From Eledone cirrhosa (Eukaryota), in the NCBI GenBank assembly GCA_964016885.1, contig OZ024740.1, positions 268,460,001 through 268,524,000 on the forward strand: a stretch of 64,000 nucleotides of DNA. The letters are read 5' to 3'. The notes beneath the pieces were generated by a model that worked only from the letters and a program-made list of their open reading frames with translations, did not search any database and was not told the origin of the DNA. Below are positions 3,478 through 60,399 of this stretch, in pieces. Both the position numbers and the translations under genes were made by a program. The first letter of the stretch is position 1. Every line of letters starts with the position of its first letter.

Positions 3478-3830
3478 TAGAAAGTGAGGTTTTTTATACA
3501 AAATGAAAAATAACCGAGGTATCCTACACGAGTGAAAGTATAAAGAAAAAGAGATGAAATCGAAAATGCAACTGGAGTCTTATTTTTTTTTTAAATATAT
3601 ATATTTATTTGGTTCCTTTACCGGTTTCGCAGTTCTTCTGCTTTTCAAAAGGTGATTGAGATGGAGGGTCTGTGGTTTTTCTCAGTGAGAAAAATCACAG
3701 ACCCTCCATCTCAACTCACCTTTTGAAAAGCAGAAGAACTACGAAACCGGTAAAGGAACCAAATAAATATATATATTTTTTAAAAAAATAAGACTCCAGT
3801 TGCATTTTCGATTTCATCTCTTTTTCTTTA
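3478..3830. mobile_element. Fold-back mini-element with U3-A8 HHR in both arms (3615-3652 minus, 3719-3756 plus)
   Basis: Inverted arms of about 145 bp, apex near 3685, extra left tail, (TA)n on both sides; CCUU-UUGAAAA-GCAGaagaaCUGC-GAAACCGGUA-AAGG; relative at 52790-52930. Confidence 0.8.
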
Positions 3831-4634: not shown

Positions 4635-4706
<72 letters not shown>

Positions 4707-4707
<1 letters not shown>

Positions 4708-5520
4708 TTCTTTCGTTACTTTGGTATTGTATGGTTGGGTTTTGCCTACCGCAATGTTCAATTTGTCAAGCTATTTATACGTATGTTATTACTCTAAGGA
4801 CCTACCAACCCTTATTGAGTGCTTTGTTAACTCATTCCTATTGTAGGTCGACTTTGCTTGGCTACAACCAAAGCTTTGATTATACTAAGCTTCCACTTGT
4901 ATTATTCTCCTAGATTTAATAAATAACTAATTAATGTAATTAGACAATTCTGTTGATTGGTTAATTATTTGTGTTTGTTTAATAACATCTGGTTGAGAGC
5001 TTTTATTCGGAACGTTTGAGCGGAAATTATAATATTTCCCTTGTTAACACTTTGAATTTACCCGCCAAAAACCGGGGGTTGCTTCCCTTGTTGGAAATAA
5101 CACGTGACAACGAAATGTTCGTAGGCTGCCTTCTGTAGCGGTCGCATTTAGTTTATTCACACCAGTTTGAAGCAGAACGGAATCCCTGTTGATGAAATGC
5201 ATCCTCTGTTTGATCATGGAATACCACGAGCTTGCGTGTTACATAAGTTGGATAAATGATTTTGGATTCATAGAAATACCTCAGACGTATATCGTTTGAT
5301 TTGTGCAGGTGTGTTGTTTAACCTGTTAGTTCTTTCGTTACTTTGGTATTGTATGGTTGGGTTTTGCCTACCGCAATGTTCAATTTGTCAAGCTATTTAA
5401 ACGTATGTTATTACTCTAAGGACCTACCCTAATTGAGTGCTTTGCTAACTCATTCCTATTGTAGGTCGACTTTGCTTGGCCACAGCCAAAGCTTCGATTT
5501 TACTAAGCTTCCACTTGTAT
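4707..5520 (+). mobile_element. Partial-tandem element (about 200-bp direct repeats, unit about 620 bp) with degenerate long-stem-II HHR at 5185-5284
   Basis: 4707-4910 repeated at 5329-5520; CUG-UUGAUGA-AUGCAUCC...GGAUUCAU-GAAA...CAG. Confidence 0.6.
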
Positions 5521-17503: not shown

Positions 17504-17830
17504 TCACAGGTGCAACGTTGTTGTTGGGGTTACGCTGTTGTTGGTGCTGTTATTGTCTACACCAAAAGAGGTCATCATGAAACAAGAGTTGTATTTCCAC
17601 ATGTTACGGTGGAACGTTGTAGCCGTAGTGTCATAACCTGTAAGTAGATTCAGAAGAACGTCTGGCGGGTCAGCCAATGCCTCTAGTTGCACCTTACTTC
17701 CTGCGCAGCATATAGAAGGCGCGTCGCCTGGCCACTTTATTGCCTTGCAGGATGTACAGACATTATCCATTTTGCCAATGGAAACTGTAGGCAGAAGTCC
17801 GTAATCCCCAGAAGAGTTATATCTGAAGGC
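17504..17830 (-). pseudogene. Helitron Rep/helicase N-terminal Zn-finger fragment
   Basis: MDNVCTSCKAIKW...ICCAGSKVQL...FHRNMWKYNSCFMMTSFG resembles the CxxC..CC.GKV and IRxYNSxFxFTSxG motifs. Confidence 0.8.
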
Positions 17831-18489
17831 TGCTTTTACCCAGCCTGAGCTCTTGGCAGCAGTAGCTAATGTATACCGGGAACGTTTAGCAGCAAGCCTG
17901 TTGTCTCTGTCTACCGTGGACTCCTCCGCCAGCGCTTATTGGCGACGAAGGCGAACACCAGCAAGCCTTGTCGTACGGTATGTTGGTGACTCAACCAGGC
18001 GGGAAAGACGTCTATCAGCCAGTCAAGATTCGCGCTCAGCAGGTGTTTCCTAGAGAAAGTTAATTAATGCTACTGGTTAGCTAAGCCAAAGGCACTGTGC
18101 CAATAGTAATTGAGAAAAGTGTAATATGAACAAAAGGGAATCAAGGTAAGACAATAAATTTAATATAACTACGATTAGAATATTATAGTTGCTTAAAAGT
18201 GGTGACAGTTAGGATAAACGCAGTGCTTGCTAACATTAAGGGGGAATATTGCATAAAAGATTAACCAATTGTGAATGAACTCATACCTGAGAACGCCTAA
18301 TTCGTTGTCTCAAAGCAGTAGCTACATCTTTTTTGGAGGTAAGTCTTGAACGTTTCCGTGTGGGTATAACGGCGTGTAACGAAGCTCTTAGGTTAGAGAG
18401 GGGTGATTAAGTACAGAGAGAGGTGACACCAGATTCGCTAGTATGGTTACTGGTGAATGGGAAGGTTTGGAAATATGATTATAATAACT

Positions 18490-20395: not shown

Positions 20396-20915
20396 ATTAG
20401 GATTGATGCTCTGAAATAGCGATGTATACAGGAATGTATGTATAGTATATATGGCAATATACCGTATGTTTAATTGAAAACATTTTGAAGACCTTGCGCT
20501 ATTGTTTTAAAGTAGTGACTATGTCACTTCTTTTTTCGGCAAAGGAAGGGAGAGAAGCTGACAGATTCTGTTTCACACTGTTGGTGTTCCTCAGAGCAAC
20601 ATACTCCCTGCCTCTGCCGAAAATTATAGAGGCTGGATTCTTATAGAATTCCAGTAATAATCAGGAACTGATTATACAGAGCGATTGCCCGTCCAGCAAA
20701 GATTAAAAATTAGGATTAGTGCTCTGCAATCGCGATGTATACATCAATGTATGTATAGTATATTTGGCAATATACCGTATCTTTAATTAAAAACATTTTG
20801 AAGACCTTGCGCTATTAAAAATTTTTTTAATTAAACATAGGTAAACATTTTTTTAATTAAACATAGGTATATAATTAAACATAGGTATATAAAAATGTTT
20901 TTAAGTAAACATAGG
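20396..20915 (-). mobile_element. Retrozyme-like partial tandem (unit about 313 bp) with intact HHR at 20557-20597
   Basis: 20396-20503 repeated at 20709-20816; GCU-CUGAGGA-ACACcaacaGUGU-GAA-ACAGAaUCUGU-C-AGC (GUC site). Confidence 0.8.
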
Positions 20916-26942: not shown

Positions 26943-27651
26943 GTTTATTTCATTAATAGCTAACTTTGTCTGTTGCAATGCAAACACGTTTTGTGTTTAT
27001 CATATATTTTAATGTATTTAACTGCTCGGAAATGCCCCTTTTCTTGGAGCTGAATTATTGTAAACGACTGAGAGTTTATTCTCAAAATATAATATAGTAT
27101 ATTGCTCCTTAACTGTAGAGCTGATCTTTAATCCCGCATAAACGGCTGTTATTTCTAGCACCGGGAATGCGGGACGGCTAATTTGGCCTGGCTGCACACG
27201 TGTAGTCAGACCTGCTAAATTTTTGATGTGGAATATACTAATTTTACTGGGTTCCTGTTGATAAGCACAGAAGATATGGATATTTCACTTTTTATTTCAA
27301 TTCCATTTCGATTCTCTTTATTTTTCAATTCACGTACCTCCGTTGCGAAACATATTTAGGTTTCGAGGTTCAAATTCATCTACGGAGCAGGTTTGGATTT
27401 TGAAATTTAAATTTGTCCAGGAACCATGGCCTTTGCCAATATAAGCTTGTCTTTATTGACTTATATCGAGACAGACAAATTGTATTCACTTTAATTAGTT
27501 TATTTCATTAATAGCTAACTTTGTCTTTTGCAATGCAAACACGTTTTGTGTTTATCATATATTTTAATGTATTTAACTGCTCGGAAATGCCCCTTTTCTT
27601 GGAGCTGAATTATTGTAAACGACTGAGAGTTTATTCTCAAAATATAATATA

Positions 27652-30310: not shown

Positions 30311-30973
<663 letters not shown>

Positions 30974-30974
30974 A

Positions 30975-31014
<40 letters not shown>

Positions 31015-31018
<4 letters not shown>

Positions 31019-31519
31019 TATGTATACGTACATAGATATATGTATACAAACGTACAGTAGTATGTATATATATACATACATGCACAAATATATATGTACG
31101 TATGGGTTTACCGAACATTTATTATAATGTTCGGTTTGTTTGTAAACAAACAGCATAAGGAAAGTATATACTTTCAGACGTTCAATCATCTGGCAGGAAG
31201 GTATACGATGCTGACGATAGCTAATAAGCTTGAAACTAGTACATCGTTCCTGTGTCAGTGTTGAACCAAAGGTGACGTTGGTTGCCTGAACGCTGTACGG
31301 CGAAATTCGGGCTGTTTGTTTGTTTACAAACAAACCGAACATTATAATAAATTTTCGGTAAACCCATACGTACATATATATGTGTGCATGTATATATATA
31401 TATATATACATACTACTGTACGTCTGTATACATATATGTATGTACGTAGACATACATACTTACATTTAAGTATCAGCCGTACTAAGAATGAGAAATGAAA
31501 TTTCGTTTCATTGTTTTCC

Positions 31520-31522
<3 letters not shown>
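31015..31522 (+). mobile_element. Family I element with inverted arms and intact HHR at 31205-31247
   Basis: ACGAUG-CUGACGA-uAGCUaauaAGCUu-GAA-ACUAGU-A-CAUCGU; second copy at 54280-54968. Confidence 0.85.
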
Positions 31523-31568
<46 letters not shown>

Positions 31569-31574
31569 AAAATG

Positions 31575-31639
<65 letters not shown>

Positions 31640-31642
<3 letters not shown>

Positions 31643-31740
31643 ATGTTTAACCCCGACGGCAGAGCTCAAGCCGTTTCGACGGTTATTTCTGGAAATAGCC
31701 GTCGAAATGGGTTGAGCTCTGCCGTCGGGTTAAACATTTT

Positions 31741-31743
<3 letters not shown>
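31640..31743. mobile_element. Family A fold-back
   Basis: Near-perfect 100-bp palindrome between (TA)n tracts. Confidence 0.8.
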
Positions 31744-31787
<44 letters not shown>

Positions 31788-33009
31788 ATATTAAATAGAT
31801 GGAAACTATATTTATAAAACCATATTTATTCTATTATATATATTTCAAGAGTACCAACACTTTGGTATGCTTTCATCAGATAAAATACAAAGTTTGTTTT
31901 ATAAATTTTGACATAACCAGAAAAAGATACCTTAACGGTTCAAGTTTTCCTTGGATAGTGAAGGGATAAGTGAAGAAAAGTCAGATATTTCAAATTATTA
32001 AGATGAGTATGCAAATGAGGTTGATGTATAGGGCTGAAAAAAACGTTATTTTAGACGCTATGCAGAATTTAAATGTATGAGTAGGAAGAAGAAAAAGGAA
32101 GAAGACCTTGTATTTACGTTAATTTAAAAGGAAAGGTGGAATATGATTCCAAAATTTAAATTTTTTTAGCTATATTATGAGTTATAATATTGTATATATA
32201 ATCAATTAGATTATATGAAGAATTATGGTTGTAACTATATTTTATCTTATTACATTACAATAGGTTATAAGTATATAAATATCTATATAGATTAATAATT
32301 GTGCATGTATAAGTATTATAGAAATAGAAATAATTTACAATATGAGTTACGAAGGATGTTGATTTTGCATTTTACATTAAAAAAAACAGGTGGTTCAAGT
32401 TGTAAGAGGAGAACAATTTGTAGATTCGCATATTTTGTTCCAACATTGAAAATGTTTTCAGAATATTGTTAATTTAGCGAAGTTATATAGTTTAACGTAG
32501 ATATTATATTATAATATGTTTATGTTTCCACGATTGAAAAGGGAAAGATAACTCCAATCTTGTTTGTTAACCGTTAAATTTGATGAATGATTTGCTCAGA
32601 AAATATATAGAGAAAATTATATTTTATTTCGTGTGAGATTAATTATTTTAGTCGAAAGATGTGTGAAAGGAGAGGAAAAACGTAATGTGTATTTCGAACT
32701 ATCGTAAAGAGAATACATTTTCAGAATGTCAATTAAAGATTACCAATCTACATCTAAAAAAATATATTTAGAGGGGTATCATTAAGAAAACAATGTCAGA
32801 AGTTAAAAAAATATAAAAAATTATATATATTACAAAAATTTATTAAAAGGTAAAAATAGTAGAAATATTAAAAAATTAAGAAGGAGGGTCATTTAAAAGA
32901 ATTTACATTTAATTTTAAATTTAAATTTTTAAAGAAAATAGGATCTTTAAAGAAAATAGGATTTTTAAAGAAAATATGATCATTTTGAAGGTGTATAAGA
33001 TATAGTCAA

Positions 33010-34942: not shown

Positions 34943-34945
<3 letters not shown>

Positions 34946-35535
34946 AGTAAAAATTAGCGAGAATCGAATTTCAGCCTATGAAATAACGAAAAAAACACAT
35001 TCGAATTGTGAGGCAAGCGCTCAATAATTCAAAAGAATTAGAGCTTACAACTTACGTTAAAGGCCAAACACACTGAGATGGTGGTTAAACTAGTTATCCA
35101 CACAGCGAAGATTCGATCTCCTATTTCGGGTCAAACAGATATACAGATATAAAAATATATGGAAGCATAAATGTTTTATACTCACCGGACCCCTGGAATG
35201 ATGGTAAAGTCCAGTGTTGGGGTTTCTGCGGCTCCAAAAGTTAATTACTGTCCACTTACATAAAGGATGTTAAGTTTCTCGTATCCTGACTCAACTAGGA
35301 GTGCGCGTTATCAACGGGATTCAGTTCTGAAGACCACATAGATGTGTCTGTAACTGACCCCACGTGGGGTTCAGCAAGGGAGGCAACAGCTGAATTAGGC
35401 GAATGAATTCATCTGTGTATAATATTGCGAAAATGCAAAATATCACAAATCGAATGAAGTTCTCGACAGAGTGGTTAAATATAACAAAGCTATTCGGCAG
35501 TCAATAGAATAGACCAGAACCAGTCAATAAAATTA
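34943..35535 (-). mobile_element. Family B element
   Basis: Diverged, collinear homolog of 44580-45125; (TA)n flanks. Confidence 0.7.
35185..35317 (-). ncRNA. Large HHR with U3-A8 core and extended stems II and III
   Basis: CCG-UUGAUAA-cGCGcaCUCC...GGAGcCGCa-GAA-ACCC..CUGGA-loop-UCCAG-GGGU-C-CGG. Confidence 0.7.
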
Positions 35536-35536
35536 A

Positions 35537-36225
<689 letters not shown>

Positions 36226-36461: not shown

Positions 36462-36510
<49 letters not shown>

Positions 36511-36601
36511 CGAAGGAAATGTGGTAAGGAACCAGGTGGACCATAACGCACCAAAGTACTCAATACTTGAGGTAGTAGAGTGGGTAATAGGAACCAGTAA
36601 G

Positions 36602-36695
36602 ACCCCGACAGCTGAGCTCAAGCCGTTTCGACGGCTAAATCTGGACTAAATGAAAATTTATCCTGGTATTTAAATAGCCGATCTTCTCAAGGGGT
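36602..36695 (-). ncRNA. Family A full HHR with U3-A8 core (element 36508-36745)
   Basis: ACCCC-UUGAGAA-GAuCGGCUA...UAGCCGUC-GAA-ACGGCU-ugagcuc-AGCUGU-C-GGGGU. Confidence 0.8.
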
Positions 36696-36744
36696 AATTC
36701 CATATGCAAATATCCTACAGTTTGTAGGACTGGAGTATACATAA

Positions 36745-37108
36745 TATATAAGATCAAAAGATGGTTAAAGGAGTTCCATGTATTTTATTATGCGCATTTC
36801 AAAAACAAACATCATCATGCAATAATATTTGTGTTTTCATCAGATAAAACAGGAGGACATGATATGAAGGCTAAAAAACACTTGTGGATAGTGCAGTTTT
36901 AAATCAACATATGTTGATTTAAAACAACATATGTTGATTTAAATCAACATATGTTGATTTAAAACTGCACTATCCACAAGTGTTTTTTAGCCTTCATATC
37001 ATGTCCTCCTGTTTTATCTGATGAAAACACAAATATTATTGCATGATGATGTTTGTTTTTGAAATGCGCATAATAAAATACATGGAACTCCTTTAACCAT
37101 CTTTTGAT

Positions 37109-43724: not shown

Positions 43725-44530
43725 GATATCCACGGTAAGATGTGGGGTCTAGTCTGCATGAAAAACTCAATGTAATCCATATGTTGAAAATGTTGTAGAT
43801 AAAATAAATCCCGGAAAACAATAAAACATTAAAAGGTAAACAGAGTTATGATATAAGTTAAAACAATGAAATAAAAAATCAAATCATTAGAAATATACTT
43901 CACTGCTTTACGATCGTTTCTAGGTGATGATAATACATTGTAACTATACTTCTTTATCGATCTATGTAAGGTTATTTACAAAATATCAGATAGGGAGAAT
44001 ATTTACTTACATGCATATCACTAGCTGTTGTCAAAAGCAATAATAATTTTATTCAAAATTAGTAGTAGAATAGTAGTAAGTTTAGTTCTATGAACCTATA
44101 CCATATACATTCAACTATCAATTTGACAATCCTTCCTTAATAGATTTTTTATAGCAATTCTATTATTAATACCATTCAACCATTCCTTTCAAAGCGTCAT
44201 GACCTCAACTTAAGTGAATTATTTTTCATCTTAACATCATATCGAAAAATAAGCAATATGATTAGTTAGTTCTTCAGCTACCTCCAAATAAGTTCATAGA
44301 ATTAAACTTACTACTATTCTACTACTAATTTTGAATAAAATTATTATTGCTTTTGACAACAGCTGGTGATATGCATGTAAGTAAATATTCTCCCTATCTG
44401 ATATTTTGTAACTAACCTTACACAGATCGATAAAAAAGTATAGTTACAATGTATTATCATCACCTAGAAAGATCGTAAAGCAGTGAAGTATATTTCTAAT
44501 GACTTGATTTTTTATTTCATTGTTTTAACT

Positions 44531-44579: not shown

Positions 44580-44582
<3 letters not shown>

Positions 44583-45125
44583 GAATAATCGAGTATCGAA
44601 AAATCGGCGCACGAGTTCACGATAAACAAAATTCGAAATGAGCGGCAGAGGGCTCAATAATTCAGATAAATCAGAGCTATAACTATCGTTAAAATACCGA
44701 CACACATAGAACATGTCTAAAATCAACCATACGACCGAAAAATTACGATCTGGAAGATTCGGGACACTCAGATAAAATATCAATAAATCAATAAATCAAA
44801 TGAATGTAAAAAGCATACCCGGACCCGCTAGAAAGATGGTAAACCTAGCTTCTTGGGTTTCTGTAAATCCTTAAACCGCCCTCTATCAGCCCACATAAAA
44901 ATATATAAGACTTCTAGAAAGCAGCGGACCGGAATTTACTTCCTCAACGAGCTTTTGTCCGAACGAATAAAAAGGCATAACCCGAGTTGAAAAAACACAC
45001 ATGGAATTCAGCAAGGGAGATAACCTCTATATCCGCAAAAAATATTCGGGAAAATGTGGAAATACACATATCGAATAAGAGTGCTCAATAGACATGTTAA
45101 AATAAACAGGAGCTATTCATCATTT
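44580..45125 (-). mobile_element. Family B element with large HHR at 44818-44951
   Basis: CUCG-UUGAGGA-aGUAAAUuCC...GGAUUUACa-GAA-ACCC..GCUAG-loop-CUAGC-GGGU-C-CGGG. Confidence 0.7.
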
Positions 45126-45419
45126 ATATATATATATATATAATTTATATATATATATAAATATGCATATTTCATTCTTTCTTTGAGACCATAATTTGAC
45201 TGTTATTTGACGCAACAAGACCGAGGTCATGTAGAGGCTCATGATAGTGCAATAGAGTTTTAAGTTTGGGTTAACCCATGACAAGGGTTCTATTTCGAGT
45301 ATGAAACCTCTTTCCTTACGTCCCTAATATATACGGCAAAATTACCATGCCTCTTCCATTTCTACATGATTGGAACTATTTATTATGCAAACAACTATTA
45401 TTATTATTCAAGAGAAGGC

Positions 45420-45710: not shown

Positions 45711-46289
45711 ATATATATATATATATATATATATATTAAGACAGGGGGGAAGAAAAAATGGCTTCACTTGTGCTTTCAACAAATTTATTTTCTTCACAAA
45801 ATCCAAAAAGAATTTTTCTTAAAAAAAATTATTTTATAAATTAAGTTGTTGGTTGTTGGTTAGGTCTTAGGAGTTCTTGGTTAACGTAGGAGGTATTGTT
45901 TCGTTTTTAGAAAGACCTTTCACGCTGAGGTGCGCTTGTCAAACTGATGTGTATGTGGTGTGTTGTTCTATATATAGGGATTTAACATGTCTGTGGTCTG
46001 GTAGGGGTTTCTTTTCTCCCCCTTTAATAAGTGCATGGGTGTAGGTGTGTTGAAAAAGTGTTCATAGCAGTAATGAGTTGAGACGGTGAGTAGGGTTGGT
46101 GGGGAGAAACTTAGCAAGTGCGGCCTGCCCCGGTCATTCTCGAAAAATTCCTTTATTCAGGGGAAAAAGCTTTTAGCATCGCTTTTGTGTTGAGAATGGT
46201 CACAGGCAAATCGCACCTATCAAGCTTGTGAATAATTCTTTTTTTCTTTTTTTCCTGAAGAATTTTTTTGTGTTGAGAAATGGTCATCA

Positions 46290-48506
46290 GCCAAGAAATT
46301 AACACAACCAGAAATACAACTGTTAGAAAATGGACTGAAGTTCACTCCCACTCCGAAAGCAGACACAGCCGATGTTATAAAAGACACAGAAGAATACTGT
46401 CGAAAATTACGCTTAGGAGAATTCTTCCAGGGTGTACAATACGAGGAAGAATCACTGGTGAAAAACAAAAAGAACTTCACACCCCCGCTAAATAGAGATA
46501 AATACCTGGAGGAATACATAACCTACCTTCGCCGATCAGCACGTACAAATACGGCCGAGACGAAACACAAATGCAACATCCCTACAGACCAACTACTAGC
46601 ATTGAACAAGCTACAAAGAGATTCCTCAATAATAATAAAAGAAGCGGACAAAGGTGAAGCAATCGTCATCATGGACACAAACCACTACAAAGATATGGTC
46701 CTAGCACACTTGAATGACGAAAACTTCTACAGGAAAATCACTAAAAACGAAGAAAGGAAATCGAGGAACCAAATAGGCAAACTAACAACAAAGTACCAAA
46801 ACAACCTAACACCAAAAGAAGTAGATTACCTAACCAACTTCGAAATGAAAACCAGCAATTTCTATGGATTACCAAAAATTCACAAATCCATAGAAATCCA
46901 AAACAACATAAAAGGGAAAAAATACATCATACATCGAAGCACCAAAACCGACAGACTTAAAATTACGCCCCATTATTGCTGGCCCAGCCTCAAGCACACA
47001 ACGTCTAAGCAATCTATTAGACATCATACTCAAACCCCTATGTAAAAAAGTTCCAAGCTACATCAGAGATGATATGGAATTCCTTAACTATATCCCCAAA
47101 AAAGTACACCAGGATACAATCCTAGTCAGTTTTGATGTAATAAGCCTGTACACTAACATCCCACACGACGTAGGGATTGAAGCTGTGGACTTCTGGATTA
47201 CAAAACACTCAAGTCACATTTCAGAAAGATTCCCCAAAGAATTCATCTTGGAAGGACTTAAATTAGTATTGGAAAACAACCACTTCCTCTTTGACAACGA
47301 ACTTTATCTACAAATAAAAGGAACAGCCATGGGTACCAAAGTGGCCCCTACATATGCAACGCTCGTTATGGGTCACTTAGAGGCAAAATTATATTCCCAA
47401 CTACAGATAACATTCAGTCACGACTTCGCCTTCTACATTAATAAAAACTGGAAACGTTACCTAGATGACAGCTTCATCTTCTGGAACAGAAGCCAAACAG
47501 ACCTACAAAAATTTTATTCGATCCTAAACAGGCTTCATGAAGCTATACAATTCACTATGGAATGTAACGAAAAGGAACTGCCCTTTCTAGATATCCTCAT
47601 CATTAAAGAAGGGAAAATATCATAACGGACTTATTTTGCAAACCCACTGACACACACCAATACTTAAATTTCCGGTCAGCACACCCCTCACATACGAAAA
47701 GGAACATTCCCTTCAACATGGCAAGGCGCATCTGCACTATAGCAACACACCCCGTACTACAAGAAAAAAGATTATGTGACCTGAAAAAATTCCTTAAAAA
47801 ACAAGAATACCCGATGAAACTCATCAACGCAGCCATCTCCAAGGCTGAGAACATCCCAATAACAACACTGAGAAAACCAAACCCACAACATAAAAAAGAA
47901 AACCCTGCTATCTCTTTTGTCATCACTCACAACCCAGGGAACATCAACATTGTGAAAACTGCTAAGCAGTATCTCCCGATTCTACAGCAATCTACCAAAA
48001 TGAATGCACTCTTAAAAAACACACAGATAATTTATAGCAGACGCCAAACACCCAACCTTAAAAAACTAATTACCAAGGCAAAATTTACGACCAACATGGA
48101 ATCAATGCAAGTGACGAAATGCGGGGACCCTAGATGTGGAACCTGTGAACTCATCGAAGAGGGCAAACAGTTGTCATTCAAAAACCATGATAATTTCAAG
48201 GTCAATGCTAACATGAACTGCAAAACGAAAAACCTAATATATTGCGCAACATGTCCACAGTGTAAAGAGTATTACATTGGGGAAACCGGAACGGGATTAC
48301 ATGATAGAGTCCGGGTACATAAACAACAGATTAAAGACCCCACAGTCAGAAATACCACATGTAGCGCACACTTTGCATCATGCGGGAAGGGAAAATTCAC
48401 AATCTTCCCTTTCTTCAAGATATGGTCGGATAACGAACATTTCCGCAGATATAAAGAAGAATTCTTCATTGAAAAATTTAAACCACTACTGAACACGAAA
48501 AAATGA
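46290..48506 (+). pseudogene. PLE polyprotein: reverse transcriptase + GIY-YIG endonuclease (5' truncated, two frameshifts near 46915 and 47615)
   Basis: GLKFTPTP, IIIKEADKG, FYGLPKIHK, LRPII, SFDVISLYTNIP, GTAMG, RYLDD, LPFLD, CGDPRCGTC linker, NLIYCATCPQCKEYYIGET..R..H. Confidence 0.93.
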
Positions 48507-48599: not shown

Positions 48600-50215
<1,616 letters not shown>

Positions 50216-50569
50216 TGAACAAAGGACTAAATTTGGGATGGACGTAGACAAATTCTTCAGGAAAAAAAGAAAAAAAGAATTATTCACAAGCTTGACAGGT
50301 GCGATTTGCCTGTAACCATTCTCAACACAAAAGCGATGCTAAAAGCTTTTTCCCCTGAATAAAGGAATTTTTCGAGAATGACCGGGGCAGGCCGCACTTG
50401 CTAAGTTTCTCCCCACCAACCCTACTCACCGTCTCAACTCATTACTGCTATGAACACTTTTTCAACACACCTACACCCATGCACTTATTAAAGGGGGAGA
50501 AAAGAAACCACTACCAGACCACAGACATGTTAAATCCCTATATATAGAACAACACACCACATACACATC

Positions 50570-50606
50570 AGTTTGACAAGCGCACCTCAGCGTGAAAGGT
50601 CTTTCT
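50570..50606 (+). ncRNA. HHR-like motif with U3-A8 core in the Neptune pLTR
   Basis: UUGACAA-GCGCaccucaGCGU-GAAAGGUCUU; stem I weak; mirrored near 45910-45946. Confidence 0.5.
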
Positions 50607-50812
50607 AAAAACGAAACAATACCTCCTACGTTAACCAAGAACTCCTAAGACCTAACCAACAACCAACAACTTAATTTATAAAATAATTTTTTTTAAGAAA
50701 AATTCTTTTTGGATTTTGTGAAGAAAATAAATTTGCTGAAAGCACAAGTGAAGCCATTTTTTCTTCCCCCCTGTCTTAATATACCTAACTGTACCAAGGA
50801 TTACACACATTT

Positions 50813-59690: not shown

Positions 59691-60399
59691 ACAAACAAAA
59701 CAAAGTAATGTTTTACCCAGTATATTTCAACATGATATTTCAGGGCTATACCCTCTTTTCAAATGTAAAGCGAAAACGATTCAAAACAAAATGAATGATC
59801 TTCACTAATTGGTCAAAGTGTCTAAAATACACTTTATGCATTTTCAATCTATTTGACGTGCCACTTACATCATTTGATGTTCATTTCTCACAGTTATCAA
59901 CGGTTGGCTGTATACATGTATTTTAGCTTTAGTAAGTACTTACAGATATGTGGCTTATTTTCTCAATGTATTTATAAAACTAAGATAAAGAAATGTAGGC
60001 TATGCAAGCTGCAGGGAAGACTGTCTGTCAAGGAGAACAGCCACACCAAATTAATAAAATACCTTGAGTTATATGTAGGCAACCTGTGTAGTTTCTCTGA
60101 ATAAAAACAGATCACCTCCCTAGTGCTGGTTGCATGATAAAATGCACCCAGATTAGATTGAAAAGTGACTGGTGATAGGAAGGGTATCGAGCAACACAAA
60201 CACTGTAAAAACTATTGAAAGTATAACATATAAGAGTCACACAAATTGCATATACTGGACTAACACTAGTAATGTTAATGTTGTGCATGGTAGTGAGGCG
60301 GCTAAGCTAGTCATATGTAAGAACCCCCCAATCATCATCAAGCAATTTCACAACCACTTTCTCTTTCAGGTATAGAAAGCTACTACTAAAGAATGACCC

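Follow-up and report, generated by a model that had tools for sequence, protein, structure and literature searches.

The window analysed here is a 64,000-nucleotide stretch of the Eledone cirrhosa genome (3.0 Gb, 34% GC, with abundant (TA)n). A sequence-only reading had singled out eight hammerhead ribozyme cores in it, six with U3-A8 in place of C3-G8 and two with U3·G8. We name the sites by the first position given in that reading. All eight heptamers were found in the sequence exactly as spelled (Table 1), and each site proved to be one copy of a dispersed repeat, with 40-51 scored matches among 113 to 2,387 initial candidates in the DNA search for each site. At 36602, 3615, 27250, 43903, 35185 and 44818, the type I core (Y3-U-G-A-N-R8-A plus G-A-A-A) lies between three stems, with stem I open. 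Positions 3 and 8 form a Watson-Crick pair at the six U3-A8 sites and a wobble at 44818 and 5185. Stem I has 3-4 or more pairs at seven sites and only U·U followed by two pairs at 50570, a weakness pointed out from the start that extends to the whole family. Every core had been described as correctly placed with GAAA and an NUH site. The NUH site is present at seven of the eight, but the 5185 copy in the window carries G17 at position 5305, where the family majority has C17. Moreover, the folds at 27254 and 5185 had been drawn too short, and both have a long stem III: at 27254 this stem spans 67 nt and stem I ends at 27425, not 27360, while the 5185 fold ends near 5309. The foot of stem II is mismatched (C·A or A·A) at 43905, 35185, 44818 and 5185. 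An N·A mismatch (C·A or A·A) just before GAAA closes stem II in several families, and non-G-C pairs at 10.1-11.1 also occur in many C3-G8 families. The lowest-energy fold of 36600-36698(-) is the hammerhead three-way junction, with ordinary stability (z -0.59).

Table 1. Hammerheads and their carriers in the window (positions of the 64,000-nucleotide stretch)
Feature	Positions	Strand	Core and its position	Remarks
Type I hammerhead, U3-A8, long stem III	36602..36695	-	UUGAGAA, 36690-36684	GUC site 36607
3' end of 5'-truncated Neptune-like Penelope-like element	about 36510-36706			beside (TA)n; holds 36602 hammerhead
Minimal type I hammerhead, U3-A8, palindromic stem III ACCGGU	3615..3652	-	UUGAAAA, 3648	GUA site 3619; Poseidon-like element end
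Inverted second copy of 3615 hammerhead	3719..3756, ends approximate	+		absent from sequence-only reading
Type I hammerhead, U3-A8, palindromic stem III, long stem II with C·A foot	43903..44040	-	UUGACAA, 44034	site 43905; Neptune-like element
Inverted second copy of 43905 hammerhead	44347..44483, ends approximate	+		absent from sequence-only reading
U3-A8 core, good stem II, self-complementary stem III, two-pair stem I	50570..50606	+	UUGACAA, 50573	
Inverted 5'-adjacent copy of 50570 element 3' end	45732..46265	-		same hammerhead (position 3 at 45942)
Penelope-type ORF in three frames (two frameshifts)	46236..48506	+		RT PF00078 and C-terminal GIY-YIG PF01541
Type I hammerhead, U3-A8, 8-pair stem I, long stem III	27250..27425	+	UUGAUAA, 27258	site 27254; GUC 27417; 555-bp unit
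27254 insertion, more than one unit long	about 26943-27640			in (TA)n
Type I hammerhead, U3-A8, 3-pair stem I	35185..35317	-	UUGAUAA, 35314	GUC 35188
Roughly 625-bp non-coding unit	about 34943-35537			holds 35185 hammerhead
Type I hammerhead, U3·G8	44818..44951	-	UUGAGGA, 44947	GUC 44822; family split U3·G8 / U3-A8
612-616-bp tandem non-coding unit	about 44580-45126			holds 44818 hammerhead
Type I hammerhead, U3·G8 family	5185..5309	+	UUGAUGA, 5189	G17 in window copy
Older non-coding unit	about 4706-5517			holds 5185 hammerhead

The type I hammerheads at 36602, 3615, 43905 and 50570 each lie at one end of a Penelope-like retrotransposon. The labels Neptune-like and Poseidon-like go by domain order and linker only, not by reference sequences. 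The 50570 motif forms the 3' end of a Poseidon-like element that is very young, and it sits about 2 kb downstream of the ORF with RT and GIY-YIG domains; the inverted copy before this ORF (45732-46265) is 99.3% identical to 50250-50783. Rescue of the short 50570 stem I by splicing, for which the available text of PMC4209133 offers a precedent in D. virilis, was considered; the sequence upstream is not rich in pyrimidines. Microsatellite-like (TA/TG)n sequence takes up about 1.5 kb of the element's 3' untranslated part (48603-50140). Similar sequence precedes the hammerhead in other copies as well, and this transposon may seed microsatellites. In the 36602 family, a full-length copy (locus L361) has an uninterrupted 786-codon frame in a 3,118-bp tandem unit, with RT-like motifs and a Cys-rich linker. 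A Pfam search of this frame returned no match, and the Atlas neighbours of its protein carry HTH_animal, GIY-YIG and RVT_1. Endonuclease sequence lies 1.0-1.3 kb upstream of the 3615 and 43905 motifs in several loci, as a PF01541 ORF 1.05 kb upstream in two loci of the 3615 family (L193 and L198) and as endonuclease-like remnants at 1.1-1.3 kb in the 43905 family, whose sister family is C3-G8. The Penelope-like carriers have (TA)n flanks, and inverted pairs are frequent: 15 in 29 loci for 36602, 16 in 24 for 3615, 6 in 23 for 43905 and 4 in 20 for 50570. An inverted C3-G8 hammerhead pair adjoins the 36602 site (36783-36849(-) and 37012-37078(+)). The 36602 superfamily also occurs as numerous very short inverted pairs that break off within stem II and form long hairpins, at about 30700-32330 in the window and in loci L207, L213, L242 and L281. 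An endonuclease unlike the Neptune-like and Poseidon-like types accompanies an abundant C3-G8 family at L366:2605-3522.

The other four sites (27254, 35185, 44818 and 5185) lie in roughly 555-625-bp non-coding units within (TA)n, which by their sequence would fit non-LTR retrozymes. Units follow each other head to tail with direct spacings of 555 bp (27254), 625 bp (35185) and 611-616 bp (44818, in arrays of 5-6 at 616). No direct unit spacing was seen in the 19 loci of 5185, whose window copy repeats its own start, and no consistently linked endonuclease was found in the family loci of these four sites. 35185 and 44818 are 79% identical over 160 bp and hence relatives. We also observed a retrozyme superfamily, roughly 320 bp long and present in at least 6,436 copies (loci L373-L402), 70% of them U3-A8, in which stems II and III co-vary strongly by eye. 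Its window copy is C3-G8, with position 3 at 20594(-). Elsewhere in the window, a 143-codon frame at 17504-17935(-) may resemble a Helitron protein.

Descriptor searches were run on the window and on a sample of 97 evenly spaced 10-kb stretches (970 kb; 1.03 Mb with the window). With positions 3 and 8 left free, a strict type I descriptor gave 75 matches in the 1.03 Mb (52 C3-G8 and 11 U3-A8) versus 24 in the reversed sequence (one C3-G8 and four U3-A8, all four long and loose). An earlier, first strict descriptor had recovered just one of the eight sites. In the window alone, a loose descriptor returned 15 matches against 12.2 in shuffles, which is no excess, so the evidence for these hammerheads is family-level conservation and not the descriptor. 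Rfam covariance models gave no hammerhead family among the best 150 of 377 matches, and the matches listed comprised microsatellite-driven miRNA matches only. Inverted hammerhead pairs, such as 35820-36018, produce miRNA-like Rfam matches.

At the family level, U3-A8 is the majority at all six sites for which it had been cited. Copies with UUGAAAA make up 78 of 83 in the 3615 family, and U3-A8 is found in 24 of 24 copies of 27254 and 28 of 28 of 35185, in each case mostly among top-ranked matches that are biased toward the query. The 50570 family, with 654 exact matches genome-wide, has U3-A8 in 98 of the first 100; it is the youngest, with 41 copies 100% identical among the matches listed. 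Unranked genome-wide counts in the 43905 clade (4,246 matches) gave 3,348 C3-G8, 790 U3-A8, 26 U3·G8 and 38 C3·A8, the two Watson-Crick states being sister families about 70% alike. In the 320-bp clade (6,436 matches, control 21) the same states numbered 1,566, 4,488, 71 and 75. Half-swaps thus stand at about 1% background in both clades. U3-A8 is a family state, not the decay of single copies.

The 970-kb sample tells the same story. With 42 family seeds we recovered 131 copies: 92 C3-G8, 31 U3-A8, two U3·G8, one C3·A8 and five others. Among the 116 intact cores the counts were 81, 30, 2 and 1, against 59.7, 8.7, 23.3 and 22.3 expected if positions 3 and 8 were independent, while at position 7 all four bases occur. 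The window itself holds 34 seed-matched copies (21 C3-G8, 11 U3-A8 and two U3·G8). A pyrimidine-3/purine-8 majority is found in 21 of the 22 clusters drawn from three or more loci; two clusters (f20, f21), one of them A3-U8 and the other a loose C3-G8, were judged false and dropped before the sample counts. As copies are descendants of few founders, p-values on such counts are no test of selection, and copy-level odds ratios are inflated. The family counts do not show C3-G8 consensuses with U3 and A8 arising independently at background rates. The prediction that searches requiring CUGAnGA would miss a large part of the population was borne out, the loss being about a quarter of the copies (31 of 131 in 970 kb), or by crude extrapolation about 1e5 of 4e5 hammerhead copies. 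Nothing pointed to CpG decay as a cause in the single C7-G8 family encountered, in which 24 of 27 copies are C3-G8. A compact U3-A8 hammerhead-like motif (UUGAAAA) at 59730-59766(-) is a single copy in the sample. Two more U3-A8 families were noticed, L253:7083(+) with L287 and L343:2527(+) with L264; the former appears to be a relative of C3-G8 motifs found in L205 and L268, which suggests another switch.

How often the swap occurred was addressed with trees. The endonuclease tree kept 13 of 27 rows from 8 families, with long branches flagged; single-locus endonuclease links (those of the retrozyme families, L290, L387, L395 and L138) were judged to reflect chance neighbours and left out. This tree needs at least three changes between U3-A8 and C3-G8. 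A single U3-A8 clade was rejected (p-AU 5e-5), as was a clade uniting 36602 with 43905 (p-AU 0.014). The 320-bp clade made its own single switch, with 20 of 21 U3-A8 rows in one 100/100 clade. Together, the three changes and this switch amount to at least four, plus the group of 27254, 35185 and 44818. Judging from these trees, in which the direction of the swap (gain or reversal) is not rooted, U3-A8 arose more than once among these jumping-gene families. The original proposal of at least six unrelated families is plausible: the recurrence stands and no single clade unites the U3-A8 families, but 35185 and 44818 are relatives, and 3615 and 50570 share one unresolved branch of the endonuclease tree. 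The repeated swaps provide a natural and clean example of how a catalytic base pair undergoes compensatory evolution, via both possible intermediates.

On the other hand, half-swapped cores are not confined to the background. The lead family, that of 36602, has 4,785 exact matches genome-wide, of which 1,182 have C3 and just 18 have G8 (14 U3·G8 and four C3-G8). This corresponds to up to about 3,590 U3-A8 copies and about 1,180 C3·A8 copies (25% of 4,785). The latter, found in loci L292, L304, L305, L028, L022, L024 and L314 among others, fall into two subfamilies, with 13 columns at which the majority base differs, and G7 is present in 97 of the first 100 C3 copies. A tree of 32 of the 62 distinct copies (the long-tailed ones), built after masking positions 3 and 8, has the shape of a ladder in which two long-branched U3-A8 copies come first, C3·A8 next and young U3-A8 last; its starred branches require two changes at position 3, with the root inferred from longer end branches and the oldest U3-A8 group consisting of two copies only. 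A first tree (42 of 116 copies) was discarded as skewed to young copies. Compared between its subfamilies, the 3' stems of this family vary at 2 of 28 columns versus 14 of 57 in loops and flanks, a difference that is not significant (p 0.08). U3·G8 is likewise amplified. The 44818 family has 439 matches, 195 of them U3-A8 and about 244 not; the first 100 listed include 58 U3·G8, which account for every copy there other than U3-A8, and no C3, and a U3-A8 subfamily is nested among the U3·G8 copies (98/97). In the 5185 family, U3·G8 is found in 21 of 23 copies, mostly top-ranked and thus query-biased matches. Hence, U3·G8 can be the stepping stone that the sequence-only reading took it for, given the nesting at 44818, but it is not rare, being the majority state of two families. 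The amplified C3·A8, U3·G8 and stem-I-poor families indicate that broken or weak hammerheads did not stop amplification.

Taking these data together, we think it probable that U3-A8 replaced C3-G8 in the founders of several Penelope-like and retrozyme-like lineages and was then copied thousands of times, that these hammerheads still cut RNA, and that the 3-8 pair is favoured without being strictly required for spread. A Watson-Crick 3-8 pair would hold nucleotide 8 in place for catalysis, as a 2006 crystal structure reportedly shows. The kinetic papers on 3-8 mutants by Przybilski and Hammann (2007), Nelson and Uhlenbeck (2008), Martick and Scott (2006) and Lee (2008) are said to report low activity for C3·A8 and U3·G8. 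The swap could proceed via a C-to-U and a G-to-A transition, both of them common, with a wobble or mismatch state in between that would cut slowly and leave the element mobile; weak selection on active master copies would then bring back the pair. In the model available in PMC4209133, cleavage would free unit-length element RNA from tandem or read-through transcripts.

A different account would make the hammerheads passengers that are irrelevant to mobility, with U3 and A8 produced by a C-to-T and G-to-A bias and hitchhiking with master copies. Both changes are indeed GC-to-AT transitions in a genome of 34% GC, C3·A8, U3·G8 and stem-I-poor families have been amplified, and the authors of PMC8557442 suggest, in the text available, that hammerheads may simply parasitise Penelope-like elements. 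Nevertheless, half-swaps make up 3 of 114 sample copies when about 46 would be expected, and no transversion state at position 3 or 8 has been amplified among accepted families. Moreover, on the lead-family tree position 3 must change twice while A8 stays fixed, and it ends as U; the stems also appear to co-vary in the 320-bp clade (by eye). We therefore regard this account as unlikely. The opposite view is the one taken from the sequence at the outset, that the double change implies selection for catalysis. In its strict form, only paired cores propagate and U3·G8 is a brief intermediate. Near-perfect 3-8 coupling in two clades and in the sample and the nesting of U3-A8 in U3·G8 within the 44818 family speak for it. 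However, C3·A8 lasted through two subfamilies, most copies of one young family are U3·G8, and 50570 spread almost without a stem I. Given about 1,180 exact C3·A8 matches in the lead family, a requirement for catalysis does not follow from the double change. Selection for catalysis is thus borne out only in part, and its strict form strikes us as quite improbable. That the motifs are chance occurrences, UUGAnAA and GAAA being common in AT-rich DNA and the folds coincidental, is hardly credible: the loose descriptor did no better than shuffles, a satellite in locus L218 yields many false U3-A8 matches and the fold z-score is ordinary, but alignment with sister families, in which C3-G8 hammerheads occupy the identical element position, rules this reading out, and there are thousands of copies against zero matches with reversed-pattern controls.

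Returning to the favoured reading, in which the 3-8 pair is advantageous without being indispensable, hammerhead cutting is likely to be useful rather than essential to these elements, as far as their sequences tell. We advance more tentatively, as a possible though somewhat doubtful scenario, that an autonomous Penelope-like lineage lost the 3-8 pair (U3-A8 to C3·A8), kept transposing through two subfamilies and later regained U3-A8. Along with 50570, this would be natural evidence that C3·A8 works in its own context, possibly through C3-G7 pairing, or that Penelope elements can move with a silent ribozyme. In this sense, nature has provided, in the amplified C3·A8 lineage, a test of the need of these elements for their ribozyme. 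This need is also directly testable, as U3-A8 and C3·A8 subfamilies coexist in one family with an intact full-length copy.

The variant itself and the descriptor bias are already in print, as the available text of two papers makes clear (PMC3088659, PMC4209133), and we are dealing with a known variant in known carriers. The first natural C3-G8 to U3-A8 covariation was reported by Perreault et al. (2011; PMC3088659), who describe these ribozymes as active in vitro. The available text of that paper presents scattered examples, without family-level or phylogenetic analysis. Our literature search yielded no paper naming natural C3·A8 or U3·G8 hammerhead families, and Lünse 2017 or the supplements of PMC4209133 may describe such families. 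Regarding the carriers, our non-coding units resemble metazoan non-LTR retrozymes, as described in the accessible portions of PMC7229834 and bioRxiv 10.64898/2026.07.22.740005, in their tandem arrangement, their single type I hammerhead per unit and their Penelope-like link. They differ in having long stems II and III and a length of roughly 555-625 bp, versus about 300 bp in the scheme of the paper. The coding elements share with Neptune and Penelope/Poseidon elements, as portrayed in the available part of PMC8557442, an RT followed by a C-terminal GIY-YIG, inverted 5'-truncated copies, (TA)n targets and a 3' hammerhead, and the Cys-rich linker of the 36602 family is a Neptune or Nematis trait. 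According to the same text, the role of hammerheads in Penelope-like elements is unclear, and Naiad elements spread without canonical ones.

The closest parallel is offered by the Cercyon Penelope-like elements of Schistosoma mansoni (Cervera and De la Pena, 2014; PMC4209133), in which, following the available text, about 1,300 U3-A8 minimal hammerheads stand beside about 2,000 canonical minimal matches. The first descriptor used there missed the U3-A8 forms, and the bias of a CUGAnGA-only census was thus previously noted for Schistosoma. Cercyon and the elements described here share the swap, the carrier class, type I topology, a palindromic stem III and mostly single or inverted copies. Unlike in Cercyon, the hammerheads at 36602, 27254, 35185, 44818 and 5185 have a long stem III of monomer type, and C3·A8 and U3·G8 families, of which the available text of PMC4209133 makes no mention, are amplified in E. 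cirrhosa. In addition, several lineages could be resolved here, with at least three independent changes, and the half-swaps were counted.
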